A stretch of 64,000 nt of DNA from Candidatus Omnitrophota bacterium (GTDB lineage: Bacteria; Omnitrophota; Gorgyraeia; Duberdicusellales; 4484-171). Below the pieces are notes generated by a model. The model ran no database searches, was not told where the DNA came from, and saw only the letters and a list, made by a program, of their open reading frames with translations. The stretch lies in assembly GCA_024231025.1 (NCBI GenBank), contig JAAEQW010000111.1, positions 11,055 to 75,054 on the forward strand. The letters run 5' to 3'. Below are positions 29,344-62,000 of the stretch, in pieces. The position numbers and the translations under genes are program-made. The first letter of the stretch is position 1, and each line of letters begins with the position of its first letter.

Positions 29344-30303
29344 ATGAATGATTTTGACCCCACTCAAAGTAAAATTCTTTTAGCAACCGAAGACCTAAAA
29401 TTACAAGATTTTATCACGCTAATCCTTATGGGAGAAGGGTACAATATAAAAGCCTTCTTCAACCAAGACGACCTATCGCAAGAGCTTAAAAAAGAGCCCG
29501 TAGACTTGATAATCATAGATTTTTTGTCGCCAAAGATAAATGGTCTGGAGTTTTGTAAAACCATCAGAGAAAACTTTACATCAAAATACACTCCTGTCTT
29601 ATTAATTGTACCCGAAGAAACCCCCTTATTAAAAACAAAAGCTATTTTTACCGGTGCGAACGATTTTATTGAAAAACCGTTCTCATCCGAAGAACTTTTA
29701 GCCAGAACCAAAGCTTCTCTGCTTCGCGCTCAAAGATATCAAGACACTAACCCATTAACTAAGCTCCCTGGCATGTCTACTACAGTAAAAGAATTGAATA
29801 TCCGTATAGAGTCGAAAGAGCAATTTGGCGCGGCTTATTGCGATCTTGGCAGTCTAAGGCGATACAACGAACGCTATGGCTTTAAACAAGGCGACCAGCT
29901 CCTTAAATATATTGCAAAACTTCTCACGCATTCTCTTAAAAGCTTAGGTAATCCATCAGATTTCCTTGCTCACATTGGTAGCGATGACTTCTTCTTTATC
30001 ACTTGTGCCGACGGAATTGAGCCAATATGTAAAAAAATTATCAATGACTTCGAGCAGACAATTACCGATTTTTATAACGACGAAGACAAAAAACAAGGTT
30101 ATGCCATCATAAAAAACAGAAAAGGAGAGGTTTCTAAAATACCCCTTCTTCGCATGCATATCGGTGCAGTCACCAATGAGTTCTTTCCATTTGTTTCTGC
30201 CGCGATGGTGCTTCAGATTACCACTGAGCTCAAAAATCACGCTAAGAAATTTCAGAAAAGTACCTATATAAAAGAGCGAAGAAAATCTTACCCATTTTGT
30301 TAA
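29344..30303 (+). CDS. Response regulator: REC + degenerate GGDEF (GSDDF) domain
   Basis: REC with DLIIIDF...EKPF. A GGDEF-like fold (CDLGSLRRYNERYGFKQGDQLL) in which the GG[DE]EF motif reads HIGSDDFFF and no RxxD I-site is present. Confidence 0.7.
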   Translation: MNDFDPTQSKILLATEDLKLQDFITLILMGEGYNIKAFFNQDDLSQELKKEPVDLIIIDFLSPKINGLEFCKTIRENFTSKYTPVLLIVPEETPLLKTKAIFTGANDFIEKPFSSEELLARTKASLLRAQRYQDTNPLTKLPGMSTTVKELNIRIESKEQFGAAYCDLGSLRRYNERYGFKQGDQLLKYIAKLLTHSLKSLGNPSDFLAHIGSDDFFFITCADGIEPICKKIINDFEQTITDFYNDEDKKQGYAIIKNRKGEVSKIPLLRMHIGAVTNEFFPFVSAAMVLQITTELKNHAKKFQKSTYIKERRKSYPFC

Positions 30304-32243: not shown

Positions 32244-34235
32244 ATGCTTAGTCGTCAAAAATTTATATTAGTTATCACTTGTGCTGTTTTTGTTTTTCTG
32301 CTTTACCTTTCTTCGCTGCAAACTCCTTTTATTTTCGACGATAACCATATGGTAGTACGAAATTCCTTAATTAAACATATAAAACACCTACCAGCATTTT
32401 TTAAGGGCTTTGCAACTAGCGCTCCTGTTCCCAAAGGAATGTGTCGGCCGCTTTTAATGCTTACTTTTGCCTTTAACTACTTAACTTGTGGCCTTAATCC
32501 AATTGGGTACCGCATAATAAATATTCTTTTTCATTTTCTAAACGTAGCGGTTCTATTTCTTTTGCTAAAAGAATTACTCACTAAAGTTCACGTTAAACCG
32601 CCGAATTCGATCTTTGCTTTTATTCCCACTTTAATATTTTTGGTTCATCCAATTAATATTGAAAGCATAACCTACATTTCTAGTCGTTCTGATTTAATGG
32701 TTACCTTATTCTTATTGCTGGGCATCACCTGCCACATTAAAAACAAATACTCTTTGAGCCTGCTATGTTACGCAGCAGCTCTACTGACTAAAGAAACTGC
32801 CCTTAGCTTTATTTTCTTTATCACAACTTATGACTTTATATTTCGAAAAACATCAATAAAGCAATGGTTAAAAAATAGGTTTTCCCTTTACGCCGCAATC
32901 GCTTCGGTAAGCGCACTCTATTTGATTTATAAAAATACTACATTTCGGGCTGACTATGTTGCACCACTACGGTCGTATTATTCTAATTTTCTTATTCAAG
33001 CTAGAGTTACTTTTCTTTATCTTAAGTTATTCATTTGGCCGAAAGGATTAACCTTGTTTCATTATATCCCCGACTATAAAACCATTTTTAACCTGGGAGC
33101 ATTTTTATCAGTTTCGGGATTGCTGGGAATCGTTTTTATCGGATTTAAAACAGTTAAAAAACAACCGCTTTTTTCTTTGGGGATATTTTGGTTTCTTGTA
33201 GGGTTAGCACCTAAGTTTTACGCACGGCTTAGAATCGTCGCAATGGAACATCATTTTTACCTTGCTGGTATCGGCATTTATCTAATTATTGCGTTTGGAT
33301 TAAGCAAATTTTATCCAAAACTTAAATATAAAACATATTTTACAATATGTGTAATCTCTATCCTCTCTTTGCTTACCTTTATACGAAATCTTGAATATCG
33401 AGACGATCTTATCTTTTGGAAAATAACTGCTCAACGAAATCCTCACTCGGCTAATGCCCGCATGGGCCTAGGGGTGAGATATATGAATCTTGAAATATGG
33501 TCAAAAGCAAAAGAAGAAATCGAAAAAGCTATTCCTTTAATCAAAGATGAAGAAAATGCACAAAAAGCCAAAATAAACCTCATCCGTGTTTACAAAGAAG
33601 CTGGAGAAAATGAAATGGCAGAAAAATTATTAGAAGAAACCACCCGACAAGTCGCTAAAACCGAAAGGCCACCAGCAGGAGTTCTCCAAAACTTAGGAGT
33701 TATCTACTTTTTAGCCGCCGAAGATGAAAAAGCCCTCACTATCTGGAGGAGAGCATTAAAGCTTTACCCCCAAAGTGCAGGAATTCATACTAATCTCGGC
33801 AATTATTATTTAAAAAAGAGTGCCCTGGCCAAGGCAGAAAAGTTACTTGATAAAGCTATCGAATTGGACCCCGACTCTTTAGAGGCAGTTTTTGCTTTGG
33901 GAAACTTATATCAAGTAAGTAATCGCTCTAATAAAGCTATCGCTCTCTATAAAAAGGCTCTCGCAACCGGCCACGGTAAAAAAAACCACTTATTGTACTA
34001 TAATATAGGAGCACTTTATTTAAAACAGGATGGCCACAAAGGGGTAGAGTATTTAGCTAAGGCAATTGATCTAAAACCAGATTTTGCCATGGCTTACAAC
34101 GATTTATCAGTTTTCTTTGCCTCTGTGAATCCTCCGGACTGGAAACTAGCTAAAGAATTTGCCGAAAAAGCCGCTAATTTTGGATTTAAGCCAAATGAAG
34201 AATTCTTAAAGTTCTTGGAAAATGTTGATAATTAA
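32244..34235 (+). CDS. TMTC-like GT-C glycosyltransferase with C-terminal TPR repeats (paralog 2)
   Basis: Same architecture. A 34-aa block is identical to paralog 1, with ~100 bp of near-identical DNA. Confidence 0.65.
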   Translation: MLSRQKFILVITCAVFVFLLYLSSLQTPFIFDDNHMVVRNSLIKHIKHLPAFFKGFATSAPVPKGMCRPLLMLTFAFNYLTCGLNPIGYRIINILFHFLNVAVLFLLLKELLTKVHVKPPNSIFAFIPTLIFLVHPINIESITYISSRSDLMVTLFLLLGITCHIKNKYSLSLLCYAAALLTKETALSFIFFITTYDFIFRKTSIKQWLKNRFSLYAAIASVSALYLIYKNTTFRADYVAPLRSYYSNFLIQARVTFLYLKLFIWPKGLTLFHYIPDYKTIFNLGAFLSVSGLLGIVFIGFKTVKKQPLFSLGIFWFLVGLAPKFYARLRIVAMEHHFYLAGIGIYLIIAFGLSKFYPKLKYKTYFTICVISILSLLTFIRNLEYRDDLIFWKITAQRNPHSANARMGLGVRYMNLEIWSKAKEEIEKAIPLIKDEENAQKAKINLIRVYKEAGENEMAEKLLEETTRQVAKTERPPAGVLQNLGVIYFLAAEDEKALTIWRRALKLYPQSAGIHTNLGNYYLKKSALAKAEKLLDKAIELDPDSLEAVFALGNLYQVSNRSNKAIALYKKALATGHGKKNHLLYYNIGALYLKQDGHKGVEYLAKAIDLKPDFAMAYNDLSVFFASVNPPDWKLAKEFAEKAANFGFKPNEEFLKFLENVDN

Positions 34236-34606
34236 ATACTACTGGTACAAACAGGATCGCTAGTCATAGTATAAGCAGTTACAACGCCTCTAAAAATACT
34301 AGTAGTGTAGTAATCGTTCCAGTCCACACTTGGATTAGGATGAGTAGGTAATATTCTTTCACTAAAATAGTCCGCCGCAAACGTAGCATCTAATGAGGCT
34401 GGAAATTGTGCCGTTTGATCAATCGCATAACGAGCATAGTAATTACCTAAAGCTGTTCTTATTGCCCCTAAAGATTGCGAACAAGCCGCTATTTGAGCAT
34501 CTCGCCTTAAATTTATAAACTTTGGTATCGCCATTGAAGCCAGAATTCCAATAATAACGATAACCATAATTAATTCAATAAGGGTAAACGATTTATTTTT
34601 AATCAC
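34232..34606 (-). CDS. pilA: Type IVa pilin (PilA-like), paralog B
   Basis: MIKNKS/FTLIELIMVIVIIGILA with E+5 and a C-terminal Cys pair. The stop codon overlaps the stop of the convergent TMTC-like gene (TTAA). Confidence 0.8.
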   Translation of the reverse strand: MIKNKSFTLIELIMVIVIIGILASMAIPKFINLRRDAQIAACSQSLGAIRTALGNYYARYAIDQTAQFPASLDATFAADYFSERILPTHPNPSVDWNDYYTTSIFRGVVTAYTMTSDPVCTSSI

Positions 34607-34690: not shown

Positions 34691-34720
34691 AAAAAAAAGG
34701 CCCCACAAAACTGTGGGGCC
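34691..34720 (-). terminator. Rho-independent terminator downstream of pilin paralog A
   Basis: GGCCCCACA-GTTTT-GTGGGGCC hairpin followed by T8 on the minus strand. Confidence 0.75.
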
Positions 34721-34745
34721 TTTATTGTGCTAACTAAAAAGCAAC

Positions 34746-35117
34746 TTAGATACTGTCGGTACAAATAGGAGCATTGCTTAAAGTATACGCAGTTGCGACA
34801 GAACCAACAAGGCTAGGGACGTAATAACTATCCCAAAGAGCACCTTGAGGATGGCCTGGTAGTGTTCTTTCAGCAAGATAATCTACCGCAAAAGTTCCAG
34901 CCAATTTGGTTGGAAATTGTGCTGTCTGGTCAATCGCAAAACGAGCGTAATAATTAGAAAGCGCAGTCCTAATAGCTGATAAGCTTCCTTCGCAAGCTGC
35001 CATTTGAGCATCTCTTCTCAAATTAACAAACTTAGGCACAGCAATAGCAGCTAAAATACCAATGATAACAATAACCATGATCAACTCGATAAGAGTAAAA
35101 CCTTTTCTCATAAACAT
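34746..35117 (-). CDS. pilA: Type IVa major pilin (PilA-like), paralog A
   Basis: MFMRKG/FTLIELIMVIVIIGILA with a canonical G-1/F+1/E+5. Strong SD (AGGAGGTGA) and its own terminator. Confidence 0.85.
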   Translation of the reverse strand: MFMRKGFTLIELIMVIVIIGILAAIAVPKFVNLRRDAQMAACEGSLSAIRTALSNYYARFAIDQTAQFPTKLAGTFAVDYLAERTLPGHPQGALWDSYYVPSLVGSVATAYTLSNAPICTDSI

Positions 35118-35191
35118 CCTGAATCACCTCCTTTCTTTCGTCCCTTTTTTTCGGGACAGATTTAAGAATTAAAATAACTTCTTATAAGCTC

Positions 35192-35219
35192 AGAGTATCA
35201 CTCCCCGCTTAAAAGTCAA
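35192..35219 (-). promoter_or_regulatory. Possible sigma70-like promoter for pilin A (TTGACT-N16-TACTCT)
   Basis: Read from the minus strand upstream of 35117. Weak -10 element. Confidence 0.2.
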
Positions 35220-35534
35220 GTTAAAATGAAAAAGAACAATAAAAAAACCGAACTATTTCTCGATAAGTCGCCTCATAGTTCGGTTATCCCGTTTACCTTC
35301 GGCAGCCTGGCGACCCTTTCAGGGCCCATAGCTTTGCTCAGCCATCGCTATCATAAGCGTTGGCTAACCCGCTCTTGGCGGGGCCCCCCGATCACTCGGG
35401 GTTTGCTCTTATCGAGTATCCAATTTGTCTTACAACCCATGTATAACACACCATGGCATAGATGTCAAGGAAATCGACAATCTTTTATGTAAATGACTGG
35501 CACAAAAGGAGTTATGAGCGAATTCTACAGACAC

Positions 35535-36488
35535 CTACCCCCCAATGGGGCCATCCGAAGGGGGATCAATTTCGGCTTTCCAATCGGGAACTTGTTTTAC
35601 TTCAGCTAAAATACTTTTTATGATATCCTCTCTTATTTCCAGAAATTTGACCCCAAGAAAATACCGCCCGCCACGCTCGAGGTTGCAACGCACAACCTCT
35701 GCACTGGCCTCATACGAAGAGTCTTTTGATGGAAATTTAATCATTACTTTCGAATATGGAGGCAAAAATATAAAAGTTCTTATCCCCAGAGCATTACCGC
35801 TGGCAGAAATATCCAAAACCGTAGCCGAAACATACGATGATGACACAAGCTTTACGCGCTCATCCACAGGTTTAAAATCAACCGGAAGTTTTATTGACAA
35901 TCTTTCCGATTCTCGCCAAAAAGGCATCAAGCCAAGCCCCTGTGGAGACACAATTAAATCTTCTAAGTCAAAATACTTGTCATCTGGTCCAAAAAATGCG
36001 TTTACTGCTCCTTGAATAGCGCTTGGGGTGCCAAACACCGGATAAATCTCTAAATCAGTAGCCTGCATTGTGAGAGTGCTCACTAAACCAGCATCCAAGG
36101 GATTGGCCATGCAAACATACATGATATTTTCCACTTTAAAAATCGGCAAGAAATAATTTTCCCGATAGAGAGCTTCGGGAAAAAAGCTTAAAAGTTCTGG
36201 ATCCAATTCGTAATCACTGATTCTTAAAAAGGGGATCAAGGCATGTTGAGCAAAGAACATGTAAACATCCTCTTCGGTCATAAAATTCATTCGTATCAAT
36301 GTAGAATACAAAGACTTACCGCTCTTCTGTTGCTCCTCTTTAGCCTTTATAAACTCATTAGGCTTAACCCAGGACTCTTTAATTAGTTTTGTTTCTAATC
36401 TTTCTGTCATTATTTTGATTATGGGATCTTTCTGCCGGTAACACGCGAAACCGCGGCCGCTTCGGGATGCGCCATTGCGCACCCCCAT
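35535..36488 (-). CDS. T2SSE_N (GspE/MshE N-terminal)-PilZ domain protein; start uncertain (alternative ATG at 36408-36410)
   Basis: N-terminal region matches the T2SSE_N pattern (...LDPELLSFFPEALYRENYFLPI...MANPLD...). C-terminal PilZ motifs are WRESER and DISASGNALG. Confidence 0.6.
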   Translation of the reverse strand: MGVRNGASRSGRGFACYRQKDPIIKIMTERLETKLIKESWVKPNEFIKAKEEQQKSGKSLYSTLIRMNFMTEEDVYMFFAQHALIPFLRISDYELDPELLSFFPEALYRENYFLPIFKVENIMYVCMANPLDAGLVSTLTMQATDLEIYPVFGTPSAIQGAVNAFFGPDDKYFDLEDLIVSPQGLGLMPFWRESERLSIKLPVDFKPVDERVKLVSSSYVSATVLDISASGNALGIRTFIFLPPYSKVMIKFPSKDSSYEASAEVVRCNLERGGRYFLGVKFLEIREDIIKSILAEVKQVPDWKAEIDPPSDGPIGG

Positions 36489-36501: not shown

Positions 36502-36732
36502 CTATCTGCTCTGATTTAACTCATATAAACTTAGCGAAATGCTAAAAAGCAAACACATCATAGCAAAAAACAAAACTTCTTTGTAATTAATACCGAAAAC
36601 TATTTGGGAAATACTTAATATTCTCAAGCCGATCCCAACAACAAAGCTCATAAAAGCCATTGCAATAAAAAAATCATCACCAACACTATATACACTTTTC
36701 ATAACACACCTCCCCTTTTTTACCTTCACCAA
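36502..36732 (-). CDS. Small two-TM membrane protein (paralog of 4389..4622); likely start MKSVYS at 36700-36702 preceded by GGGGAGGTG
   Basis: About 85% aa identity to the other copy. Confidence 0.55.
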   Translation of the reverse strand: MVKVKKGRCVMKSVYSVGDDFFIAMAFMSFVVGIGLRILSISQIVFGINYKEVLFFAMMCLLFSISLSLYELNQSR

Positions 36733-36776: not shown

Positions 36777-37346
36777 TTACTTCTTTTGATTAGGATAATA
36801 TTTTTTCATGAAATCTTCGATAATCTCTGAAACATGCTTCTCGCCGGTAGCATAAGCAGCACTTTCTTTAATATCTTCGGGTACGATTTTTGGGTGTTTT
36901 TCCTCCAAAGCCTTAAACCACTCCGCCTGTTGACGTACTATTCTTAAAAGCGCACGATTTTCCTTTAGTATGGAGTGATAATCAAACGCTTGTCTAACTA
37001 ATATTCTTAACTCTTCTACTTCAACCGGTTTCAAAATATAACGCCATATGTGCACCCTATTTATAGCGTCCATAGCACTTCCTAAATCGGGATAACCAGT
37101 AATCAAAATCCTTATGGTGTCAGGATAAAGACGTTTCACTTTAATAAGAAAATCAACCCCCATCATACCAGGAAGTTTATTGTCACAAATAATTAGCTCT
37201 ACTTCACCATAATCCTGTAAAATTTTCCATCCCTCTTCGGCATCTTTTGCGGTTAATATTTCCCTGCTATCATCTTCCAGAATCCTTTTCAAAGAAGAAA
37301 GAATATGCGGTTCATCGTCAACAATAAGAATTGTACTTTTCGACAT
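36777..37346 (-). CDS. Response regulator receiver protein with ~70-aa C-terminal extension
   Basis: ILIVDDEPHILSSL...ELIICDNKLPGMMGVDFL...ILITGY. Confidence 0.8.
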   Translation of the reverse strand: MSKSTILIVDDEPHILSSLKRILEDDSREILTAKDAEEGWKILQDYGEVELIICDNKLPGMMGVDFLIKVKRLYPDTIRILITGYPDLGSAMDAINRVHIWRYILKPVEVEELRILVRQAFDYHSILKENRALLRIVRQQAEWFKALEEKHPKIVPEDIKESAAYATGEKHVSEIIEDFMKKYYPNQKK

Positions 37347-37685
37347 TTAATCCTCCCAATGGTCAATTAATTCTTTTAGAAACTTTACTCCATCTACAGG
37401 AAAAACCTTGGTAAACATAACTCCCATTCCAGAAGGCAATCCGGCCGCTGGGGTTTTTCTAACCCAGGCAACCACTGCACTCGCCTGAATTCTTCGCACT
37501 TCTTCTCGGCCTACCTCAAAAATAACTTCCAAGGGAGCACCGATTTCCTCGATTTTGTCGGTAATAATGAACATCCCGCCTTGAGAAAGGTTTGAGATCT
37601 CAACACTTTGCAGGATCTTCTCCCCCGTGCAATCAACCGCCAATTTTATTTTAATGCGCCGATAACGTCGTCTTTCTTCACTCAT
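37347..37685 (-). CDS. Stand-alone PilZ domain protein
   Basis: RRYRRIKIKL...ISNLSQGGMF (RxxxR and D/NxSxxG). Translationally coupled between the histidine kinase and the receiver. Confidence 0.65.
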   Translation of the reverse strand: MSEERRRYRRIKIKLAVDCTGEKILQSVEISNLSQGGMFIITDKIEEIGAPLEVIFEVGREEVRRIQASAVVAWVRKTPAAGLPSGMGVMFTKVFPVDGVKFLKELIDHWED

Positions 37686-38538
37686 CTTGCTTCAAACTCT
37701 TCCCCTTTGGTAATGATACCACAAAGGTAGTACCTTTTCCAGATGTAGCTTCAACCTCAAGCGCTCCACCATGGTTCATTATGATTTTCCTGCTAACATG
37801 TAGCCCTAACCCAGTTCCACCTTTAGTTGTAAAAAATGGATCAAAAATTCTGGAATAAACCTTTTTCGGTATTCCAGGTCCGGTATCAATCACTTTTACG
37901 ATTACGTTTTTATCATCTTCGGTGGTACTAACCGATATAGTGCCTTTTTCCTGAGAGGTAACTTGTTTTATCGCAGCAGCAGCATTAAGTATTAAATTCA
38001 AGAAAACCTGACTAACTTTATTGGCATCCACCCAAACATGCGTCGTTGCTTTATAATCTTTTACAACATCAGCCTTATACTTTATTTCATTCCACAAAAT
38101 CCTAATTGTCGCATCCAGCAATTTATTAATATCATCACAAGAGCGCCGCCCTTTCGAAGCATGAGAAAAAGTAAGTAGATCCTGCACAATTCTTTTTATC
38201 CGATTAGCACCATCACAACATTCCTGAACACTTTCCTCAATGTTGGCAATTGTTTTATTACGATCATCAATGTCTTTTACATCGGTAATCTCCTTAGCGT
38301 AGGAAGAAATTAAGCTTAGATTCGTAATAAGAAAAGTTAACGGATTATTGATCTCATGGGCGACTCCTGCCGATAAGGTACCTAGAGATGCCATCTTCTC
38401 CAACTGTATAATTTGACTTTTATCTTCCTCTATTTTTTTCACGTAGAATCGCAGCTTCTTTTCCCAACGAAAATGCAAAAAAACCAAGTAGACAAACAAA
38501 ACAAAGAGTAGCGAAAAAAATACAATTGTGTCAAACAT
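37678..38538 (-). CDS. Membrane-anchored sensor histidine kinase
   Basis: N-terminal TM, H-box LSAGVAHEINNPL, G-boxes DTGPGIP and GGTGLGL. Confidence 0.85.
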   Translation of the reverse strand: MFDTIVFFSLLFVLFVYLVFLHFRWEKKLRFYVKKIEEDKSQIIQLEKMASLGTLSAGVAHEINNPLTFLITNLSLISSYAKEITDVKDIDDRNKTIANIEESVQECCDGANRIKRIVQDLLTFSHASKGRRSCDDINKLLDATIRILWNEIKYKADVVKDYKATTHVWVDANKVSQVFLNLILNAAAAIKQVTSQEKGTISVSTTEDDKNVIVKVIDTGPGIPKKVYSRIFDPFFTTKGGTGLGLHVSRKIIMNHGGALEVEATSGKGTTFVVSLPKGKSLKQDE

Positions 38539-38539
38539 A

Positions 38540-39760
38540 TTACTTCATTGCTCCAATTAAACTCCACATTGGTAAAAATATCGCCAGCGCCATGCCCATA
38601 ACAACCGAACCTAAAACAGCAGTCATTATCGGTTCAATCAATGCTGTTAGCCCTCCCATAGCATTTCTTACTTCCATTGTGTAATAGTCGCATAAAGAAT
38701 CAAGCATTGCTGATAGGGCTCCTGCCTTTTCGCCAATCGCAATCATATATCCAACAAGTCGTGGAAATAGCTTGCTAGCTAAAATCCCACCTGATACGCC
38801 CTTTCCGTCAGCAACATCTATCTTGATTCTGTCAATATCCTTTGCTAAAACAACATTACCAATAGTAACTTTAACAATATCAAGGATTTTTAGTATCGGC
38901 AAACCCGCCTGATATAAAACATTAAGCATCGACGCAAATCTAAGCATAACTATTTTATTGTAGACTTTACCAAACACGGGCATATTAAACTTGAAATTAT
39001 CCCATATTTTTCTTCCACCGGGAGTATTGATAAAGAATTTAAGACTAAAAATTATACCGACAAATGACGGAAAAGTAATGAACCAGTAATTTTTAAAACC
39101 TTTACTAACTAAGATCATAACTCTGGTAGGAAGCGGAAGCTCCATTTTCATTCCAATATATATTTTGGTAAACTGAGGCACAACAAATACCGATAAAACA
39201 AAAACAGCTATGAACAAAGCTACAACAACCATAACCGGATATTGTAAAGCCGCCTTGATGCTAGATCTAGTTTCTCGTTCTTCTTCTAGCACTTCAGAGA
39301 GACGCAATAGAATTTTATCTAAAACACCGCCAGCCTCACCAGCGATTACCGTGCTAACATACAAATCACTAAAGACTCCCGGATGTTTTGCCATAGATTC
39401 GGAAAGTTTTGAACCTTCTTCAATGTCATGGATAATTTGATGAAGCGCGCCTTTCAATGCTGCATCTTCGGCCTGCTCGGCTAAAACGCCCAAGCCTTCA
39501 ACAATCGGAACGGCCGCTTTAATAACCGTGGCAAACTGCCGGGTAAACACGATAACTGCCTTCATTGAGGCTTTTTTTACTCTTCCCTTAGTAAACTTAT
39601 CCAGAATTGAAACACCTTTCTCGCCCTTATAGCTTATGCTTACCGGCAAATAACCGAGCTTGGCAATTTGGGTAGAAACATCTGTTTCGTTTGCGGCATC
39701 AAGCGTACCCTTAACCGACTTGCCGCGAGAATCAACTGCTTTGTATGAATATACACCCAT
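38540..39760 (-). CDS. pilC: PilC/GspF-family platform protein (second copy)
   Basis: Duplicated T2SS-F domains. Confidence 0.85.
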   Translation of the reverse strand: MGVYSYKAVDSRGKSVKGTLDAANETDVSTQIAKLGYLPVSISYKGEKGVSILDKFTKGRVKKASMKAVIVFTRQFATVIKAAVPIVEGLGVLAEQAEDAALKGALHQIIHDIEEGSKLSESMAKHPGVFSDLYVSTVIAGEAGGVLDKILLRLSEVLEEERETRSSIKAALQYPVMVVVALFIAVFVLSVFVVPQFTKIYIGMKMELPLPTRVMILVSKGFKNYWFITFPSFVGIIFSLKFFINTPGGRKIWDNFKFNMPVFGKVYNKIVMLRFASMLNVLYQAGLPILKILDIVKVTIGNVVLAKDIDRIKIDVADGKGVSGGILASKLFPRLVGYMIAIGEKAGALSAMLDSLCDYYTMEVRNAMGGLTALIEPIMTAVLGSVVMGMALAIFLPMWSLIGAMK

Positions 39761-39764
39761 AAGT

Positions 39765-40601
39765 TTAAGTTAAGCTGAATTCTTTTATTACCGAATCAAC
39801 AAAGTTATTATCTATCTTTTTTGTTTTTTTGGCAAACCCTGAAAGTAAAATCAAATCGCACAAAGTATTAATTCTGCGAGGAATGCCTCCACTATACTTT
39901 GCAATAGATGCTACTACGTCATCGGCTAAGATAGCTACAACATCACTTTCACCATCTCCAACCGCTACCTTTATTCTATGAGCCATATAGGCGCCTACGC
40001 CTTTACCACTTAGAGGATCCAATTGACAACGAATTGGCACGCGTTGTGCCAAAGGTTTTAGCGCATCTACTTTGGCTTTTATTTCGGGTTGACCCAAAAG
40101 AATTAATGTGAGTAAAAACTTGTTTTCTGTTTGAAAATTCAATATTAACCTTAATTGTTCAAAAATTCTGGGATCTTCTATAGTATGCGCTTCATCAATT
40201 ATTACTATATTTTGCCTACCCTCTCGAGCATTATCTAAAAGTATATTATGCATTTTCTCAAGCAAAGGATCAACAAGAATCTCTGATTTTCTATCCGGTA
40301 AATCTTGCGGGCTCAGCGATCGGACTATCGCTCGTATAATCTCTGACGGTTCAGATACAAGAGGATTACTTATGTACGCTGTGCAAAATTTTTGAATCCC
40401 CAAATCTTTTAAAATAACTCTGGCAAGCAATGTCTTGCCGCAACCAAACACACCCGATAAAAGACCAGCACCAAGATTCTGAGCAACCACATAGGTAAGT
40501 TTCATCAGAGCATCCTCGTGTTGCGAAGAGAGATAAAGATACTTTGGATCCGGCGTATTTTGAAAAGGTTTCTCTTTTAAGCTCCAATATTGTTCATACA
40601 T
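39765..40601 (-). CDS. ExeA/GspA/MshM-like AAA ATPase
   Basis: N-terminal MYEQYWSLKEKPF, Walker A GVFGCGKTLL and Walker B IVIIDEAH. Confidence 0.6.
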   Translation of the reverse strand: MYEQYWSLKEKPFQNTPDPKYLYLSSQHEDALMKLTYVVAQNLGAGLLSGVFGCGKTLLARVILKDLGIQKFCTAYISNPLVSEPSEIIRAIVRSLSPQDLPDRKSEILVDPLLEKMHNILLDNAREGRQNIVIIDEAHTIEDPRIFEQLRLILNFQTENKFLLTLILLGQPEIKAKVDALKPLAQRVPIRCQLDPLSGKGVGAYMAHRIKVAVGDGESDVVAILADDVVASIAKYSGGIPRRINTLCDLILLSGFAKKTKKIDNNFVDSVIKEFSLT

Positions 40602-40762: not shown

Positions 40763-42574
40763 CTATTTATTACTTAACCACCGCGTAATGCGAGACTGAT
40801 ATTCACCAAGCGACTCCTTATCAACCTTAACTTCTTTGGGCGTACTCAAACCATCCAACACCGGACCTTTTATGCTAACATAAGGCTGAACTTCCTCAAC
40901 CTTTGCTTGTTCTGGTTTCAATTCAACCTGCTCCTCGCAAACTCTAGCGACTTCTTCAAAGGTGGTAATTCCTTTCAAAATCTTTGCTCGCCCATCTTCA
41001 AATAAAAGCGTCATCCCCATCTCTTGCGCTTTTTTGCGAAGAGCAACCGGAGATGTTCCAGAATTTATCATTTCTTTCATTTCGTCATTAAGCACCATTA
41101 ATTCATACAAACCACTTCGCCCCTTGTAGCCGGTTCCTTTACAATCTGGGCACCCTTTCCCCCTATATGCAACCAAACCTTCTTTTTCCTCTATTCCCCA
41201 CTTCTTCAAAGTAGCCTTTGAAGGTTCATATTCTTCCTTACATTTAGAACAAATAACTCTTATAAGACGTTGAGCCATTATCCCAATTATTGATGCCGCA
41301 ACCAAAAAATTTTCTACGCCCATGTCTACAAGACGAGCTACTGATCCAGCTGAATCATTAGTGTGTAAGGTAGAGAACACCAAGTGCCCAGTAAGCGCAG
41401 CCTGTACTGCCATGCGAGCAGTTTCCAAGTCACGAATTTCACCGACCATGATTACATCAGGATCCTGTCGCAGAATAGCACGCAAGCCATTGGCAAAAGT
41501 AATTCCTGCTTTGGGATTAACTTGGACTTGCCTAATCAAACCTAATCTATATTCAACGGGATCTTCTAGGGTAATGATATTTCTGTCAAGTGTGTTAATC
41601 CTTGTTAAAGCCGAATAAAGCGTTGTTGTTTTCCCTGATCCAGTCGGACCAGTTGAAAGAATAATCCCGTGAGGCTTTGATATCAATTCTTCATATCTTT
41701 GCAAATCTTCATAAGTTGTAAAACCTAAGCGCTCAAGACCAATACTAACTGATGCAGTGTCAAGCAAACGCATAACAACGTTTTCTCCATGTATAGTAGG
41801 TAAGGTTGAGACACGAAAATCAATAACCTTATCCCCGATCTTCGATTGAAAATGCCCATCCTGGGGAGAACGAGACTCCGCGATATCCATTCCGCATAAA
41901 ACCTTAACCCTTGATATTATAGCTGATTCCCAATCTTTAGGTGGAGAGGGAATTTCATGCAAAACGCCATCAATACGAAATCTTATTCTGGTCATGTCTT
42001 CCTCTGGCTCGATATGAATATCTGATGCCCGATCGTGCGCCGCTTGAGCAATTACTAAATCAACTATTTTTACAATTGATGTAGTTTCACTCAAAGACTT
42101 ACCCTCTTCGGCAGCTTCTTTCAATTCACTAAATATGTCTCCGCCCTCTTTTTTATAAACCCTGTCAAGAGCCGCTTCAATATCAGTCGGGGCAGCCAAA
42201 TAAACTTCTATTGGGTAATTCGTAAATAGTTGTACTTGGTCAATTAATGAGACGTCGGCCGGATCTTGCATCGCAATGTGCAAAACTTCATCCTTAATAA
42301 AAATAGGCATTGATTGCGTGGAACGAGCCAGATCTTCCGGATAAATTTTTAGCAAATCTTCGGCAATTTCCAACTCCTCCAAATCCTTATATTTTACATT
42401 AAGTTTTTCAGATATAAGTTGGTAAAAAGCACTTTTGTCTAAAATATGCATGTCTAGAATCACAGCGTCAAGTGGACGATTCAACTTTTGCTGCTCTTCT
42501 AATGCCTTATCAAGCTCATCGGAAGTAACCAAATTTGAATTCAAAAGTAATTCTTTTAATTCTTCTTCTTGCAT
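40763..42574 (-). CDS. pilB: Type IV pilus assembly ATPase PilB (GspE family)
   Basis: N-terminal T2SSE_N domains, Walker A GPTGSGKTTT and a tetracysteine motif CSKC...CPDC. Confidence 0.9.
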   Translation of the reverse strand: MQEEELKELLLNSNLVTSDELDKALEEQQKLNRPLDAVILDMHILDKSAFYQLISEKLNVKYKDLEELEIAEDLLKIYPEDLARSTQSMPIFIKDEVLHIAMQDPADVSLIDQVQLFTNYPIEVYLAAPTDIEAALDRVYKKEGGDIFSELKEAAEEGKSLSETTSIVKIVDLVIAQAAHDRASDIHIEPEEDMTRIRFRIDGVLHEIPSPPKDWESAIISRVKVLCGMDIAESRSPQDGHFQSKIGDKVIDFRVSTLPTIHGENVVMRLLDTASVSIGLERLGFTTYEDLQRYEELISKPHGIILSTGPTGSGKTTTLYSALTRINTLDRNIITLEDPVEYRLGLIRQVQVNPKAGITFANGLRAILRQDPDVIMVGEIRDLETARMAVQAALTGHLVFSTLHTNDSAGSVARLVDMGVENFLVAASIIGIMAQRLIRVICSKCKEEYEPSKATLKKWGIEEKEGLVAYRGKGCPDCKGTGYKGRSGLYELMVLNDEMKEMINSGTSPVALRKKAQEMGMTLLFEDGRAKILKGITTFEEVARVCEEQVELKPEQAKVEEVQPYVSIKGPVLDGLSTPKEVKVDKESLGEYQSRITRWLSNK

Positions 42575-55139: not shown

Positions 55140-55787
55140 TTATATCTGTCGCTTATGTATTGTCAATGGTTTTGTTGAAGGATGCCATCTTCTTGTAGGG
55201 ACGCGATTTATCGCGTCCTTTACGTTATCATTCATATTGTACATTATTTCGTTTTTATTTTCCGTATCCAATTGCCAATTTTTTGGATTATTACGAATAT
55301 ATTTTCGAACCGCATATAATGACTGGTCATTTCGAACAATTTGGTCATAGAACCGTCCTTGCCATAAAAAAATATTCCCTGACTTGCGGATTTCGTATGT
55401 TACCCGCCCTTTATACCAACGTATTATTTTTGATAATGAAACGCCGCATGAATCGCGTATTGCAATAATACCATGCACATGATTGGGCATTATAACATAT
55501 TCATCTAATTCAACGAATGGAAATTGGACCACAATATTATCCCAATATTTATTGACAATTTTACCGTTATCATTTAAAAGGACGCGATAAATCGCGTCCC
55601 TACAAATAATTTTGCCGAAATAATTTTCTTTGTTTTTTACACATATGGTAACACCATATATACCATTTCGTGAATAATCATGATTTCTTAACCGAATTAA
55701 TTTACGATTTCCTGACATAGCGACATTATAACAAGAAGGCCCTGCCTTGAACATTATTTTCCATCCATTTTTGTTTTTGGTTCTCAA
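55140..55787 (-). CDS. REP-associated tyrosine transposase (RAYT)/IS200-like Y1 HUH protein
   Basis: HDYSRNGIYGVTICVKNKENYFG, FPFVELDEYVIMPNHVHGII (HuH) and WQGRFYDQIVRNDQSLYAVRKYIRNNP. Confidence 0.75.
   Translation of the reverse strand: MRTKNKNGWKIMFKAGPSCYNVAMSGNRKLIRLRNHDYSRNGIYGVTICVKNKENYFGKIICRDAIYRVLLNDNGKIVNKYWDNIVVQFPFVELDEYVIMPNHVHGIIAIRDSCGVSLSKIIRWYKGRVTYEIRKSGNIFLWQGRFYDQIVRNDQSLYAVRKYIRNNPKNWQLDTENKNEIMYNMNDNVKDAINRVPTRRWHPSTKPLTIHKRQI
55197..55219. repeat. REP-like imperfect palindrome agggacgcgatttatcgcgtcct (copy 1, 3' tail of RAYT ORF)
   Basis: Read directly. It is the reverse complement of the copy at 55579-55601. Confidence 0.85.
55579..55601. repeat. REP-like palindrome copy 2 (inside RAYT ORF, inverted orientation)
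   Basis: aggacgcgataaatcgcgtccct. Confidence 0.85.
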
Positions 55788-56023: not shown

Positions 56024-59000
56024 TTAAGAGATGTTTAAGATTTCGTCTAGATTTCTTATTACCTTAATACTAATGATCTGGAAAGTGAATCCTTTAAAAT
56101 CATCAAGATCAATAGTAACTCCCTGAGAAGGAATGTTGATTTTGCCATCAATAATTTGCATACCCGCACCGCTTAAATCCAAGTCGATTCCGCCGGGTCC
56201 TGAGGCGCCTGATTCACCCGAACCGCCTGAATCCGCACCCACTGCGCGAGTGTAAGGAGGCTTTCCTTGTGCTTTCCTAATGTCTCTTATTAATTGTTCG
56301 TCTAGATCAACGCCCTTTGTCTCTTTTAGAAGTTGTGCAATCTGATAAAAGAGAGCACGGATCATGTAGTGATCAATGTTGGCTTCAAAATAACTCCTTC
56401 GGCCGGAATCAATATACTCGCGCTCCTTATCCGCAAGCCACTGTGCACCGATCATGTCTCCCGAATGAATTATATTATCAATATGATCCATAATATACTT
56501 GCCCTTAGTTGTCTTTTTATATCGCTCAGTCAATTCATGCCCAAGCGAAAATGGATTATCAAAGACACTTTCATCAATTGCAATGAAATCATCCCCGGCT
56601 ACGCCGAAAAACCCCTTACCCCCTACATCTGTTATAATGATGTGTTTTGGATCGTCGACAGGACGATGGCTCGGTGTCGCATGTAAGGCTCCTATTAATT
56701 CATTACGTTTTTGAACAAGGTCGTTATCTAATTTATTTAATTCATCCCTATCGCTGTCGGAAAATGTGCCATCTGTTTTTTTCGCTTGCAAAGTTTTTAT
56801 CCTCTCGTTAATCACCGCTATATCGGATGATATTTCACCTCGAGATCGATGTTTTACCTCGTCAGGACGAGGAAGATTAAGATAAGCGCTTTCCGCAAAC
56901 TCTGCGGTTCTTTGGTCTTTTGCTGGATCATTACTATTCGTACCATAAATTTGGGTTAACCAATTAGCCAATTCAACATGAAAGTGATTTAGCATTTGGT
57001 CCATGAAAGCCTTCTCCTCACCATCCGGAAGAAGCTTAGCTAAATCCTTTAATTCTTGATATTTCGCAATTATTTCCTCTGGCACCGCGCGATAAGAATT
57101 ACTTTCATCAAAGGTGATTTTCTCACCAGTCTCAAGGTGAGTGATCGTCCCAATTAGTCGACCGTTGACTACTTTAAGATTCTCAATACCACTGAACTTG
57201 CCCATGAAATCTATGACTCCTGCCTTTGGACTCAATTCTATTTTTTGTTTTTCTTGACGGTTAGTGACTGCATCGTTGTCGTCACCGCTAAGAGATATAT
57301 AGTCAGTCGGGAAGGGGCTCTCCCCCATATTATCTTCGGCAGATGTTTTACGGAATCCACCGTCAGTAATCCCTAAGGCGTCTCGAATTTTTTTAATTAT
57401 TTCGACATCGGGCCAAAAAATTGTTAAATCTTGATATTTTATCATCTTTATCTCGGCCTCATGCAGCACACCAATAGTAACCGGACCCAAAGGTTTCCAC
57501 TTTTTTACATTGCCTTGATCGTCAAGCTCTTCAATGGAAAAAGGTCCCTTATTTCCAGACACTTCTCTTATAAGATCAACCATCACTGACCCCACATTGC
57601 CCAAATCATCTGGCATCGGAATAGAATAACCAAAAGAGAAAGTTCCTCTATTGGCAGAAGCGATAATTATTGGTAAATCTTTGATTTCGCCGTTTAATAA
57701 ACTTAAGAGAAGGTGGTTATAAAACTTTATTGCTGAATCAGTAGAAAAGCATTTATCCAAAACAGCCACGGTATCGGAAAGCATTCCTTTATGTTTGCCC
57801 TTTAGCTTTTGAGCACGAGCGATAAAAGCATCGGCTAGCTTTTCTGCGCTAATCGTATTTCTAAAACCACCACCAAATACCAGCTCCCCCTTCAGACCGT
57901 GTCCGTTAAACCAAACAATATTATTGTTGGGATTAAATGATAATCGTTTAATTTTTTTAAGAAAACCTTTTCTCTCCTTTTTTCCCTTAAAAGTCGCGAT
58001 AAGATTACCCCCATGTTCTGCTACTAAATTAACAATCTCATCAACTTCAAAACCATCTTCACTGTTAGAGCCAGTGATTAGAGAAGATCCTTTTTTTATG
58101 ATTTCCTTATTAAGATATTTCTCACTCGTCCGCAACTGAACAATAATCGGCACTATCTTTTCAATGTATTCCTCTTTTACATCAAGATTGAAACGTTCTA
58201 GAATATTATAAATTGCTCGGGCAAGAAAAACTTTATGAACCTGATCAAGACCTCTCTCGCTCATTGCCTGATTGAGCGCCCAACTATTATAGGCAGTTCG
58301 AAAATCATTAGGCACCAAGGCCTTATTAAAGATAGCCTGAGCTTGGCTAGCAAGATACAGAATGAGCGGATCCATCTGCTCTGCCTCTTCATCTTCTAAT
58401 TCATTGGTGATCCCGGTAAGAATAATGGCAAGCTCTTCTCGATTGTCATTTTTATTCTGCTCTAAAGCTCTAAGCAAACCAGGCACGACGCTACCGCCCT
58501 TAGCAACCAATGCTTGACCAATTTTAAGAGATACATCTGGTCTCTTCACATCTAAAAAACTAAGCATAAGCGGCAAAGCGTCATCTCCAATCTCAACTAA
58601 TGTTTCTATGATGTCGGTTCCAATGACCACAGGGCTTTCCTTATATCTGATAAAATCTGCAACAAAATTTAGTATAGTCTTCTTTTCATGCTGACTAAGC
58701 CAGGAACCCGCTTTAGAATATATTCGACTCAAAGCAATAATTCCACCATAAGAATCTTTTTCTGAACTTTGCAAAAATGTCGGCAATAAATGTTTTTTTG
58801 CCACAGCATTAAAATCTCCTCTATCAAGCTTCATCGAAAGATTGGCCAAGGCAATTGCCGCTTCCTTGCGTAATATTCCATAATTAGCTTCATTTTGATA
58901 AAGGTCAAAGAGTAAGGCAATCACCTCGTCCGTAGCAATATCCATTTGCCCCAAAGCCTTAACCGCACTACGGCGTACATATAGCTTCACACTACCTGCG

Positions 59001-62000
59001 ACTTCTTTGTGTTTTTCTAGAAAATTGCATAAAGCACCACGAGCGGCTTGGACATATGTAAACGCACCTAAGGCATCGACTGCTGCGGCAACAATACGAT
59101 CATCATTGTCATCAAGCAACCTGACTAAAGCCTCTATTGCCCGATCAAGAGGCGGACCAAAACGCCTGTTATACTCCTCTCCTCGTTCCATAAAAGCATA
59201 ACGGAGACCAATTCTGCCCAAAAAATTAGCGGCTTCCTTACACACAAAATCATCTTGGTGCTTAAGCAGTCCAATAAGCACATCAACATGTTCTATTTTG
59301 CTTACGGCTAAAGCGCCCATTGCCCGCCGCCGAACCAGAGGCGGTTTACTATCATCACCAATAATTTCAATTATTTTGGCAGTTATATCTTTAGAACTTA
59401 ACAGCCTTAAATCGTAGGCGGCGATCTCACTCACCCTATCATTGCCATTAATTAGTAGGTCAGTCAGAACGCTCACTTTCTCATCAACGTTCTCCATCTG
59501 TGTAGCTTGGCTAACAAACGCACGCGGATCTTGCGCAGGCTTTTGAGCCTGAAATGCTGACATACACGCACCGAGAAACAAGGGCACTGCTAAAGTTGCA
59601 GCAATAAAAAATCTCCTCAAACGACTAGTGGATTTTGGTTTTGCCTGCCGTGCTCGAATATCCTGAGAAAGAAGCACGTCACCTTCGGGGTCAAGCTGAT
59701 AGGTAAAGGCACGAATTACATAGTGTTTACGGTTTGCGATAAAGTAATCTAAATCGCCTAACCGCTTATATTTCTCAATGCGATCGGCGAGCCATTTTTT
59801 GCCAGTCGCATCAAGTAAGCCTTCAAGCTCGGCAATAAGATCAGAGTCATTGTGTTTCTGGTGTTCGATAATTTCGTGTAAGAAAGAAATTGGATTGCTA
59901 ATTACATCCTGATCAATTACTGCAAAGGTTTTTTTACCAGCACCAAAAAACCCTTTGGCTCCTTCGTTGGTTATAAAGACATCTTCGAGGTTAAATTTCT
60001 TAACAAGTTCTTTTGCTTTTTGGCGAGCTTGACTTGGCGGCAAGCTATCGAGATAATCATTTACTGCCTTAGTATAGCCAGCTACCTCACTTGGCGGCGC
60101 CCGAGAAGAATTGTCTTTATCAAAAGTAATTGTGATATCTGGATCTTCAGTGTGGGTGATTGTTCCGGTTAATTGGCCGTCAACTACCTTAAGAGTTTCA
60201 ATACCGCTGAATTTGCCGATCTGATCGCGGGTATCAGAAAGCGAAACTCCGGTTCTTTTTTTAATTTCATCTTTTGCGCCTTTTTTTATTCTTTGGTTAA
60301 CCCTGTCCCGGAATGCATCTCGGTCTACTGTTTCGGTAGTTTGTAACACTCGGTCAATTAATTCTTTTGAAGTTTTTTCAATTAGAATTCTCTCAATCAC
60401 ATACTGCAAAGTCTCCTCGCTTAGACTGCCGGCTTCGCGGATAACTTCATAAAGAATGCGCATCGCACTTATATCTGCGCTGAGATTTTTGTCGTGGTGG
60501 CTCCTTGCCAAACCTTCCAACTCTTGATGATCTTCAATCGCTTCGTCAATACCAAGCCCTTCGGTGCCATTAAGCATAAATTGAATGCTTCTTACAATGA
60601 CTTCTCCTTCTTGAATGAGCTTTTCCACAACTGCATCTTCTAATTCATTTTCAAAAAGGCCTCCCTTTTTGGTAATCTCTTTTTTGATGTGGCGCATAAA
60701 CGCTTCCCCAACCATCAAGTGATAAAACTCATGCTGAATTTCCCAAAAAAGTTTTCTTACCGAGTTTTTTCGCGTAACAAGAAGCATCCAGTTGACATAA
60801 ACAATCGTTTCTTCACTTTCATCGATATAGGCTTCTGCCAACGGCCCCTCATCGGAAACGATTATTCTGTTTATCGAATAAGAAGCGCCGCTGCTCTCTA
60901 ATTCTTTTAGCGCTCCATTAACTATCCTTAATGCCCTATCTCTTCCAACCGATCTTGCTCCGCCATCATAATCTATAACCTGAGCGCCCCTGATATTAAA
61001 AGTTAAAGGATTCTCGCCAACCTTACTGCTTGCCGGAAAAGCCACAGCAGATAAGTCGTCTTTGGCTAGTGATATAACTTCTTTACTGCGAATTTTGGTT
61101 ACACCTTTTGGCGAAGGTTGAACTTTTACTACTCCTCGGCGGCGCCCAAACATGCTTGCTGCGTTAATAACTTCTGCACCATCACCTTGCGTTTTCGCTT
61201 GATCAGCGATTGCCGCAAATGTGTTATAAAATTCTTCATCCTTTTCTAAATTTTTGTATTCATAAGCTAAATCAACCAATTCCTGCCATTGGTTTCCCAA
61301 CGCATCTTTTAAAGCGTTCTTTTTTCCCGTGAAATATGCCTCTAAAACTGGCGCCTCACCAATAACGTCGATTAAGCGCTTCATTGCTAAAACTTCCCAA
61401 TAGTAAGCCGACGCACCAATACCCTTTTCTATATCTCTAGCGGCACGCCTATCCATGAATTCTTTTAACTCATCAAAAGTGAAAACGTCCTTGCCTTGCT
61501 GGCGCATTAAAAACTTAAGAGTTACATATTCGGTAGCGGCTTCATTTAAAACATGGGGAGCAAAACCATAACACTGGCTATGGAAAAACTCATGAATAAA
61601 AATTTCATAAAAAATTTGAAGATCAGCAATACTGCCCTCTGCAATACCAACAATATCGTAAAGATTAAAATAAAATGCTTGCGCCCCCGGCAAAGATTCA
61701 GGAATATTTTCCTGGGGAACGCTTGCTCTTCTTATGGCTTGATAGCTAAATCCTAATTTTCTAATAAAGCCTTTTACTTTATCTTCTAGGGCTATGAGAC
61801 CATCATCTCTTGCGGTCTCGGCCTCGCTACCTTTAAGCATTCTACTTTGCACACCAGCATAGCCTAAAAACATCTCATCAACATCTTCAACTGTTTCGCC
61901 TCGCTTGAGACCATCCAAAGCTCTTTCATAAATACGGCCCGGTAACTTTGCTTTTAATGATTCTCCCAAAAACACTATTTCTGGAGACTCCTTCTTCACT

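Follow-up and report, generated by a model that had tools for sequence, protein, structure and literature searches.

PilZ adaptors that link cyclic di-GMP (c-di-GMP), a second messenger, to phosphorelays are, to our knowledge, represented by essentially one studied case, the pair formed by HapZ (PA2799) and the kinase SagS in Pseudomonas aeruginosa, whose partners are large and are not encoded together, and hapZ is not known to lie within an operon of kinase and regulator genes. The subject of this work is a 64,000-nt stretch of DNA (hereafter the window, whose positions are used throughout) from a Candidatus Omnitrophota bacterium (GenBank assembly GCA_024231025.1, contig JAAEQW010000111.1, positions 11,055 to 75,054 of the forward strand), in which a histidine kinase (HK), a stand-alone PilZ protein and a response regulator (RR) are encoded one after the other beside pilC, as a regulatory unit of an Omnitrophota type IV filament machine (pilus or type II secretion-like). 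The families to which the parts of this cassette can be assigned are all well known (HisKA kinase, REC, canonical PilZ, MshEN and, in the RNA of the pilin leader, the GEMM-I clan), and precedents exist both for a PilZ adaptor on a phosphorelay and for PilZ-type regulation of PilB. What appears to be new is the combination, that is, a minimal HK, a stand-alone PilZ protein and a tailed receiver as a conserved, translationally coupled cassette of a pilus operon, accompanied by an MshEN-PilZ protein and by a pilin gene with a predicted riboswitch. A distance tree places the cassette as ancestral across the sampled Omnitrophota, and no description of such an HK-PilZ-tailed-receiver cassette in a pilus operon was found in the literature. 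The reading that we tentatively prefer, with a probability of roughly 0.42, is that c-di-GMP-bound PilZ would work as a trans adaptor on the HK-RR pair, whose phosphorylated RR would in turn act post-translationally on the filament motor.

HapZ of P. aeruginosa attaches to SagS at its receiver domain when c-di-GMP is high, and phosphotransfer is under the control of HapZ (10.1101/2020.02.11.943704; PMC12564702). The Omnitrophota locus resembles the HapZ-SagS-HptB system in that a single-domain, motif-bearing PilZ protein is tied to two-component proteins (here by gene context), but SagS, a hybrid kinase of large size, has sensory domains and an Hpt relay, whereas the HK of the window is minimal and has no sensor, the receiver forms a protein of its own and the genes lie in a pilus operon. 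In Xanthomonas citri, a PilZ protein regulates the type IV pilus by way of the MshEN-like domain of PilB and the REC-containing c-di-GMP sensor FimX (PMC8389850). That system likewise has a small PilZ protein at a type IV pilus system, but the Omnitrophota cassette contains no FimX-like GGDEF-EAL protein, and a kinase and a plain receiver are found instead. In XAC1133 and PA2960, moreover, the motifs RxxxR and [D/N]xSxxG are missing and c-di-GMP is not bound, whereas both motifs are kept here in all members and the fold is closer to that of canonical PilZ domains.

Two further systems invite comparison. In PilS-PilR (from Myxococcus, Geobacter and Pseudomonas), as in the window, kinase and regulator genes are placed between pilC and the pilin gene, and the kinase could conceivably receive its input within the membrane; the differences are that the Omnitrophota RR lacks the NtrC-type AAA+ and DNA-binding domains, that its HK has one helix and no PAS domain, and that a PilZ gene is interposed. 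The gene set of the locus also recalls the msh cluster of the MSHA system of Vibrio cholerae (MshE/MshEN), since it includes a TPR protein, a PilB-like ATPase that has an MshEN domain, an AAA_22 ATPase and a PilC-like platform protein, and c-di-GMP is its apparent master signal too. The locus differs in that the model of the MshE-type c-di-GMP motif (NF053729) scores under its cut-off in the two MshEN proteins of the window, and c-di-GMP sensing appears to be delegated in the Omnitrophota locus to PilZ domains and a riboswitch.

Organization and conservation of the cassette

The extent of the three genes (36777-38538; single genes in Table 1), the junctions between them and the adjacency to pilC had been described in an earlier reading of the same DNA without database searches (the sequence-only reading), and all of them could be read directly in the sequence. 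The pilC stop codon (TAA, 38542-38540) is followed by one base and then by the HK ATG at 38538; the HK stop codon (TGA, 37680-37678) lies within the start of the PilZ gene (ATG, 37685-37683), giving an overlap of 8 nt (ATGAGTGA); and the PilZ stop codon (TAA, 37349-37347) abuts the RR ATG at 37346, in the same frame. Shine-Dalgarno-like motifs are found 5' of the cassette starts, and the cassette, which lies upstream of the pilin gene, shares its transcript with pilB and pilC. The earlier idea of a three-gene unit stands as far as the order HK, PilZ and RR is concerned, but it was too narrow, since a conserved mini-protein of 66 aa with two transmembrane segments is also part of the cassette.

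The survey of related loci comprised about 22 distinct ones after the removal of duplicates (numbered with the prefix L where they have to be told apart), which were reached through homologues of PilC, of the kinase, of PilZ (in metagenomes, with a 6-sequence alignment) and of RR (in long contigs). A complete set of HK, PilZ and RR is present in 12 of them, in the shared order pilC, HK, (small two-transmembrane gene), PilZ, RR, MshEN-PilZ and pilin; in four others the contig ends inside the locus, consistent with the triad; HK and RR without PilZ occur in two, RR without HK and PilZ in four, and PilZ without HK in none of the about 22. Among the eight close metagenomic relatives of PilZ (46-53% identity), all eight lie in the same pilus locus, beside orthologues of HK and/or RR. 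The nine loci picked by RR homologues alone (RR identity 48-71% for those aligned) give a similar picture: eight hold pilC, HK, (small gene), PilZ, (small gene), RR and MshEN-PilZ, and the ninth is without HK and PilZ.

The three closest genomic loci reached through PilC (L001-L003, 71-75% identity) read pilC, small gene, RR, MshEN-PilZ and pilin, with neither HK nor PilZ, and those of the closest HK homologues (L016/L019, 60-62%) read pilC, HK, RR, small gene and MshEN-PilZ, with no PilZ. A candidate explanation raised by these loci, namely that PilZ or the HK-PilZ pair is a lineage-specific insertion, was ruled out by the wider sampling and by a tree. In the latter (a quick neighbour-joining distance tree of concatenated PilC, RR and MshEN-PilZ), the full cassette is found in every deep branch and each reduced state forms one nested clade, the PilZ-less L016/L019 clade being the sister of the window. 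Because all deep branches have the full cassette, the state with both HK and PilZ would be the ancestral one, reduced twice, and the comparison indicates that the triad is the likely ancestral state of the pilus locus across the sampled Omnitrophota. Thus, the conservation of the triad in relatives, on which the sequence-only reading had staked its idea, is seen in 12 complete loci and, on the distance tree, in all deep branches.

The junctions within the cassette are not equally conserved. PilZ lies directly 5' of RR in 11 of the 13 loci that have both, with an overlap of 4-16 nt in nine, whereas the HK-PilZ junction is variable and in most relatives the small transmembrane gene plus 20-200 nt separate the two genes. 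As a control, loci of 6 kb or longer encoding distant PilZ proteins were inspected, and in none of 33 was there a kinase or regulator match within about 6 kb. The recurrence of the same order in divergent relatives, together with this control, places the arrangement beyond chance.

Could the PilZ gene nonetheless be a mere passenger of the transcript, i.e., encode a further c-di-GMP effector, serving the pilus or some other target, that makes no contact with HK or RR? The dispensability of PilZ in two clades would fit such a passenger, as would the lack of domain-fusion support and the presence in the locus of several independent c-di-GMP elements (the riboswitch, the MshEN-PilZ protein and a protein with REC and degenerate GGDEF domains). 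Nevertheless, PilZ has stayed directly 5' of RR, with overlaps of start and stop codons, across deep divergence and while the small gene moved, and the 33 unrelated PilZ loci offer no instance of such neighbours, so that we consider co-transcription without coupling very unlikely.

The PilZ protein

Residues 4-94 of the 112-aa protein match PF07238 well above the gathering score (22.5 bits). The motif RxxxR (R6-R-Y-R-R10 in the window) and the motif [D/N]xSxxG (N32-L-S-Q-G-G37) are present both in the window protein and in 15 of 15 aligned orthologues from the loci (28-56% identity), while in one representative of the family (P0126) C replaces S in the second motif. The AlphaFold (AF2) model, with a mean predicted local distance difference test score (pLDDT) of 91, shows six strands and a C-terminal helix (99-109), i.e., a canonical PilZ barrel, and its nearest structures according to Foldseek are c-di-GMP-bound PilZ proteins: MotI (template modelling score, TM-score, of 0.82), Alg44 (0.75) and MapZ (0.71). 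The protein is thus, by sequence and predicted fold, a canonical single-domain PilZ protein and a predicted c-di-GMP receptor. A loss of c-di-GMP binding by PilZ, which the sequence-only reading had named as the finding that would speak against it, is not what the motifs of all orthologues and the canonical predicted fold suggest.

The family is small, with 17 representatives at E<=1e-10 in an exhaustive profile search, in which no close relatives outside Omnitrophota-type loci appeared at that threshold; the window protein had no exact match in the assembly index, and a word-indexed homology search returned itself alone. Within the cassette, PilZ evolves fastest: across related loci its identities are 28-56%, those of RR 48-77% and those of PilC 57-77%. 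The nearest multi-domain relatives of this PilZ protein (PilZ repeats, PilZ-Hsp70 and PilZ-Cds6_C) include no fusion to REC or to a kinase.

When the family is compared with the PDB by sequence profile, on the other hand, the only matches are XC1028/XAC1133 (3DSG, 4F48), with a marginal E of about 3e-3. These matches bear on an explanation that competes with the adaptor, namely a motor-level complex similar to PilB-PilZ-FimX, in which PilZ would leave phosphotransfer untouched, and c-di-GMP-bound PilZ and phosphorylated RR would be parallel inputs (the latter from the HK-RR pair) converging on an MshEN (ND0/ND1-like) domain, either that of PilB or that of the MshEN-PilZ protein, and the assembly ATPase would be switched thereby. 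Its precedent is the X. citri PilZ protein, which connects PilB, bound at its MshEN-like N-terminal domain, to FimX (PMC8389850). Within the locus, it could draw on the fusion of MshEN and PilZ in one protein, which hints that both domain types work together, and on the invariant core of the cassette formed by RR and MshEN-PilZ, whose genes often overlap. PilB itself may need a receptor acting in trans, as in Xanthomonas, because its MshE-type motif remains under the threshold (32.5 against 38 bits). However, the predicted PilZ fold is nearer to canonical c-di-GMP-binding PilZ domains (TM-scores of 0.71-0.82) than to XAC1133/XC1028 (0.43-0.47, at Foldseek ranks 35-43), and the protein keeps the motifs that the PilB-binding family is without. 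Furthermore, the PilZ gene tracks HK and sits at RR instead of at pilB or at the MshEN-PilZ gene, and the clades that lack PilZ keep PilB and MshEN-PilZ unchanged. The motor-level complex is regarded here as the most serious rival of the adaptor model, though as somewhat less likely than the latter. Membership of the PilZ protein in the PilB-binding PA2960/XAC1133 family was considered separately and set aside as improbable, given that both motifs are intact and the structural similarity is low.

The histidine kinase

Pfam places HisKA at residues 52-127 of HK and HATPase_c at residues 171-278, the latter covering positions 2-109 of the 111 of the profile, so that the H-box histidine and the complete HATPase_c domain of a classical two-component kinase are both present. 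Residues 1-50 hold only a hydrophobic helix (about 5-23) and a linker, which are kept in orthologues; there is no PAS domain and one hydrophobic segment in all. The hydrophobic N-terminus and the H-box AHEINNPL are kept in 14 HK orthologues, and kinases of this family with 265-296 aa are abundant in Omnitrophota. An assignment to the NCBIfam T2SS_HK family was tried and rejected, the best match (217.5 bits, cut-off 450) being limited to the catalytic core.

PilZ, HK and RR are identical to GenBank proteins of an Omnitrophota metagenome-assembled genome; in its annotation, the kinase (P0002) is 254 aa long, beginning 32 codons later and without the hydrophobic N-terminus. The description of HK as a membrane protein therefore depends on the start codon: it holds for the 286-aa form from the ATG at 38538 and fails for the GenBank form. 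The longer form is supported by the orthologues of 265-296 aa, which keep the hydrophobic segment, and by the 1-nt spacing to pilC. HK is, in consequence, a sensor-less kinase made of a predicted single-helix membrane anchor, a dimerization and histidine phosphotransfer (DHp) domain and a catalytic (CA) domain, and, as it has no sensory domain of its own, it has to receive its input from a different protein or inside the membrane.

Which protein would that be? One answer is that PilZ is the sensor of HK supplied in trans, switching HK or its receiver, with the receiver then acting post-translationally on the pilus ATPase via MshEN-PilZ; stated in this way, the proposal appears unlikely. In a sharper form of the adaptor model, PilZ would sit on the DHp/CA core of HK and toggle its autophosphorylation or its phosphatase activity, giving a two-component system that senses c-di-GMP through a split sensor; this we judge distinctly unlikely. 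Both the reduction of the kinase to a membrane anchor, DHp and CA and the 8-nt overlap of HK and PilZ in the window are in line with such a sensor, and so is the fact that PilZ was never seen without HK in the sampled loci; kinases regulated directly by c-di-GMP are known as well (CckA, ShkA, RavS). But the conserved junction is that of PilZ and RR, not the one between HK and PilZ, the kinases of L016/L019 do without PilZ and show no obvious change in architecture, and other conceivable sources of input are the membrane helix and the mini-protein. If PilZ were indeed such a sensor, it would make up, together with the riboswitch, an ancestral, phylum-wide and multi-layer c-di-GMP circuit for the Omnitrophota surface filament.

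The response regulator

RR has the acidic pocket, the phospho-acceptor Asp, the switch Thr and the Lys of a receiver domain, the corresponding residues (D10, D11, D55, T83 and K106) being invariant in 64 homologues. It is not, however, the receiver-only, bare CheY-like protein that the sequence-only reading had taken it for: the family members are 185-206 aa long, and a C-terminal extension of about 70 aa, of predicted helical structure, is conserved in all of them. In the AF2 model (pLDDT 82.8), the helix at 110-150 represents a 41-residue extension of helix 5 and is followed by two short helices of low confidence. The best NCBIfam match is to positions 1-144 of a REC-HD-GYP family, whose HD-GYP domain is absent, and NtrC-family models match RR by the receiver part alone; the nearest structures are the receivers of HupR, of RpfG-type proteins and of NtrC1. 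Past the receiver and its helix, the tail had no sequence or fold match in the PDB. REC is the sole Pfam domain, and neither a σ54 AAA+ domain nor a helix-turn-helix (HTH) or an enzymatic output domain was found with Pfam and NCBIfam. RR is thus, as far as its sequence tells, a receiver that can be phosphorylated and that has a helical tail but no recognizable DNA-binding or enzymatic output.

This domain content bears on a further explanation, suggested by gene position. In Myxococcus and Geobacter the order of the genes is pilB-pilT-pilC-pilS-pilR-pilA, which matches the position of HK and RR in the window, and with the membrane helix of HK and a pilin gene downstream, after a leader of 417 nt, it could be proposed that HK senses the membrane pool of pilin and that RR activates pilin transcription. 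An RR without σ54 AAA+ and HTH domains, an HK with one hydrophobic segment and no PAS domain, and a leader occupied by a riboswitch and a terminator all stand in the way of this, and no σ54 site (TGGCAC-N5-TTGC-like, with up to 2 mismatches) was found upstream of the pilin gene in 35118-35534. The PilS-PilR analogy is accordingly ruled out on the basis of the domain content and the missing σ54 promoter, control of that kind being barely credible here.

A tentative mechanism for the cassette

According to the adaptor model, c-di-GMP-loaded PilZ would bind the receiver domain of RR (as HapZ does on SagS) or the kinase core, and this binding would set the amount of phosphorylated RR. The phosphorylated RR, probably dimerized via its helical tail, would then exert a post-translational effect on the pilus motor, the likeliest target being either the MshEN-PilZ protein, which always co-occurs with it, or PilB at its MshEN domain, and the riboswitch in the pilin leader would put pilin supply under the same messenger. 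The model is favoured because PilZ sits at RR and is absent wherever HK is absent. Gene order and translational coupling (of the PilZ gene to the RR gene and, in the window, to the HK gene too), together with the HapZ-SagS precedent, make a gating of phosphotransfer by PilZ plausible.

Several observations weigh against the adaptor. The L016/L019 clade keeps HK and RR without PilZ and has thus lost it, so that PilZ is dispensable for the HK-RR pair, and the clade of L001/L108 keeps RR alone, which can evidently be served by another kinase. The small transmembrane gene lies between PilZ and RR in L103/L104. With two loss events on the tree, the occurrence of PilZ only together with HK is statistically weak; the nearest multi-domain PilZ relatives, not being REC or kinase fusions, provide no domain-fusion support; and the marginal PDB profile matches are PilB-binding proteins, which point toward the motor-level complex. 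The mechanism, finally, is drawn from synteny and analogy.

A kinase of 286 aa, a PilZ protein of 112 aa and a regulator of 189 aa are packaged in the cassette as a compact and tractable system for the interface between PilZ adaptors and two-component proteins, and nature provides knock-outs in the form of one clade without PilZ and one without both HK and PilZ. Thanks to this minimal cassette and to these clades, the question of the PilZ adaptor is testable with three small proteins, soluble or truncated. The cassette links second-messenger and phosphorylation signalling at the pilus, and the interplay between its proteins is what we infer.

A predicted riboswitch in the pilin leader

c-di-GMP-I (GEMM-I) riboswitches are found, in some cases, upstream of pilin genes, and the 417-nt leader (35118-35534) between the MshEN-PilZ and pilin genes resembles them in that it carries a CL00126-clan aptamer, after which comes a terminator-like hairpin. 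The window copy differs from them in its score, which is below threshold (RF03167, 30.5 bits where the gathering score is 59; a search of 2.4 kb gave E=1.3e-4), and nothing reached the gathering threshold in the whole 64-kb window. The low score is due to an insertion of about 45 nt, which forms two extra hairpins in a bulge and which, in the alignment, is flanked by the conserved strands of the aptamer.

At the homologous position of the leader, Rfam gathering scores are passed in six relatives, with 73.7 down to 37.1 bits (L101, 7449-7533; L019, 6927-7006; L023, 7843-7925; L016, 8708-8786; L026, 6972-7072; and L022, 7846-7924), mostly by matches to the GGC/UAU variant models. The window leader folds much more stably than its shuffled controls (z-score of -4.86), and a hairpin stem (CCGAACUAU...AUAGUUCGG) followed by UUUUUUU is present in both the minimum free energy (MFE) and the centroid folds, with a comparable U-tract in the leaders of L101 and L026. 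The leader is thus predicted to hold an aptamer of the c-di-GMP-I clan (the presumed ligand being that of the clan), and the modelled hairpin at 35241-35283 is probably the expression platform of the riboswitch.

Other c-di-GMP elements and neighbouring genes

The positions of the genes and RNA elements of the locus are collected in Table 1. The minus-strand cluster of the type IV filament also holds a PilM-PilN fusion, PilO, a secretin, a TPR protein and a 455-aa protein without a Pfam match.

Table 1. Genes and RNA elements of the filament locus and the evidence for their assignment (positions in the window; scores in bits)
Feature	Position	Strand	Evidence
PilB/GspE-type assembly ATPase with N-terminal MshEN	40763-42574	-	Pfam T2SSE 457.6, MshEN 68.8
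AAA_22 ATPase (ExeA/MshM-like), between pilB and pilC	39765-40601	-	Pfam AAA_22 64
pilC, PilC/GspF platform protein	38540-39760	-	Pfam T2SSF 182.5
Histidine kinase (HK), 286 aa	37678-38538	-	HisKA 40.7, HATPase_c 90.1
Stand-alone PilZ protein, 112 aa	37347-37685	-	PF07238 39.9
Response regulator (RR), 189 aa	36777-37346	-	Pfam Response_reg 73.1
Mini-protein, 66 aa, two hydrophobic segments	36502-36702	-	Orthologue alignment
MshEN-PilZ fusion protein	35535-36488	-	Pfam MshEN 50, PilZ 35.2
c-di-GMP-I (GEMM-I clan) riboswitch-like aptamer, pilin leader	35297-35416	-	RF03167 30.5
Terminator-like hairpin and U7 tract	35241-35283	-	MFE and centroid folds
Major pilin/pseudopilin gene	34746-35117	-	N_methyl 31.2
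Second pilin paralogue	34232-34606	-	N_methyl 28.4
Protein with REC and degenerate GGDEF domains	29344-30303	+	Pfam REC 63.1, GGDEF 43.2

The fusion of MshEN and PilZ is the partner of RR in every complete locus, and the genes of the two often overlap. All its orthologues have RxxxR, and all but those of L002/L003 (where G is replaced by A) have [D/N]xSxxG. They begin at the equivalent of Met27, so that the open reading frame (ORF) of the window probably over-extends by 26 codons, with the start near 36410. The binding of c-di-GMP by the MshEN domains is uncertain, because NF053729, the model of the 24-residue MshE-type motif, scores 32.5 bits in PilB and 25.1 bits in the fusion protein, under the cut-off of 38.

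A further candidate element, and a conserved neighbour of the pilus locus, is the protein with REC and GGDEF domains. It is probably not a cyclase, and its signature reads GSDDF in place of GGDEF (QDDDF/QDDDY in L106/L107). Orthologues were located on the minus strand of L026 (10178-11134), L106 (7426-8364), L107 (7440-8378) and L101 (10262-10597), and the protein could be a second target of HK. No RxxD I-site was seen at the expected place, and in L106/L107 the Asp of its receiver is replaced by Glu. In these same two loci, which belong to distant relatives, a CheY-CheC-CheA chemosensory cluster lies directly beside the pilus and REC-GGDEF locus (L106, 8499-10582; L107, 8798-10582), a hint that the filament may receive an additional signal.

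That the locus is dense in second-messenger effectors, as the sequence-only reading had put it, is supported by the MshEN-PilZ protein with its canonical PilZ motifs, by the GSDDF protein and by the riboswitch of the pilin leader, an RNA element. Taken together, the predicted riboswitch, PilZ and MshEN-PilZ indicate that the Omnitrophota surface filament would be under tight, multi-layer control by c-di-GMP. Omnitrophota are uncultured, often ultra-small and possibly host-dependent bacteria, and such control points to regulated attachment as a central behaviour of theirs.

The mini-protein is probably a hairpin of two transmembrane helices, as deduced from its sequence. Its listed ORF spans 36502-36732, with an ATG at 36702 after a GGGGAGG motif, and orthologues of 65-69 aa, 36-92% identical to the window copy, are present in nearly all related loci; no Pfam or NCBIfam match was obtained. 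It is sometimes duplicated, and its position shifts (before RR, after RR, or between HK and PilZ). It also occurs in the clades without HK and is absent from L022, L023 and L105.

As regards the machine itself, the assembly ATPase is matched by the NCBIfam models of PilB (583.6 bits) and GspE (577 bits), both under their equivalog cut-offs. The AAA_22 ATPase scores best against the model of the XrtA/PEP-CTERM-associated ATPase (TIGR03015, 196.9 bits with a cut-off of 324.5); its gene is present in most relatives, and its lack in L022, L023 and L109 makes it an optional component of the machine. The major pilin is matched by a GspG-like model (48.4 bits, under the cut-off), and a strong terminator with a 12-bp stem (34696-34723) follows the first pilin gene. 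Genes of IS200-like Y1 transposases are located close to the pilus cluster in the window (55140-55787, minus strand) as well as in L108 (7127-7969, plus strand, just after the pilin gene), and a very long ORF of 2635 aa (56024-63931, minus strand) is located upstream of the cluster.

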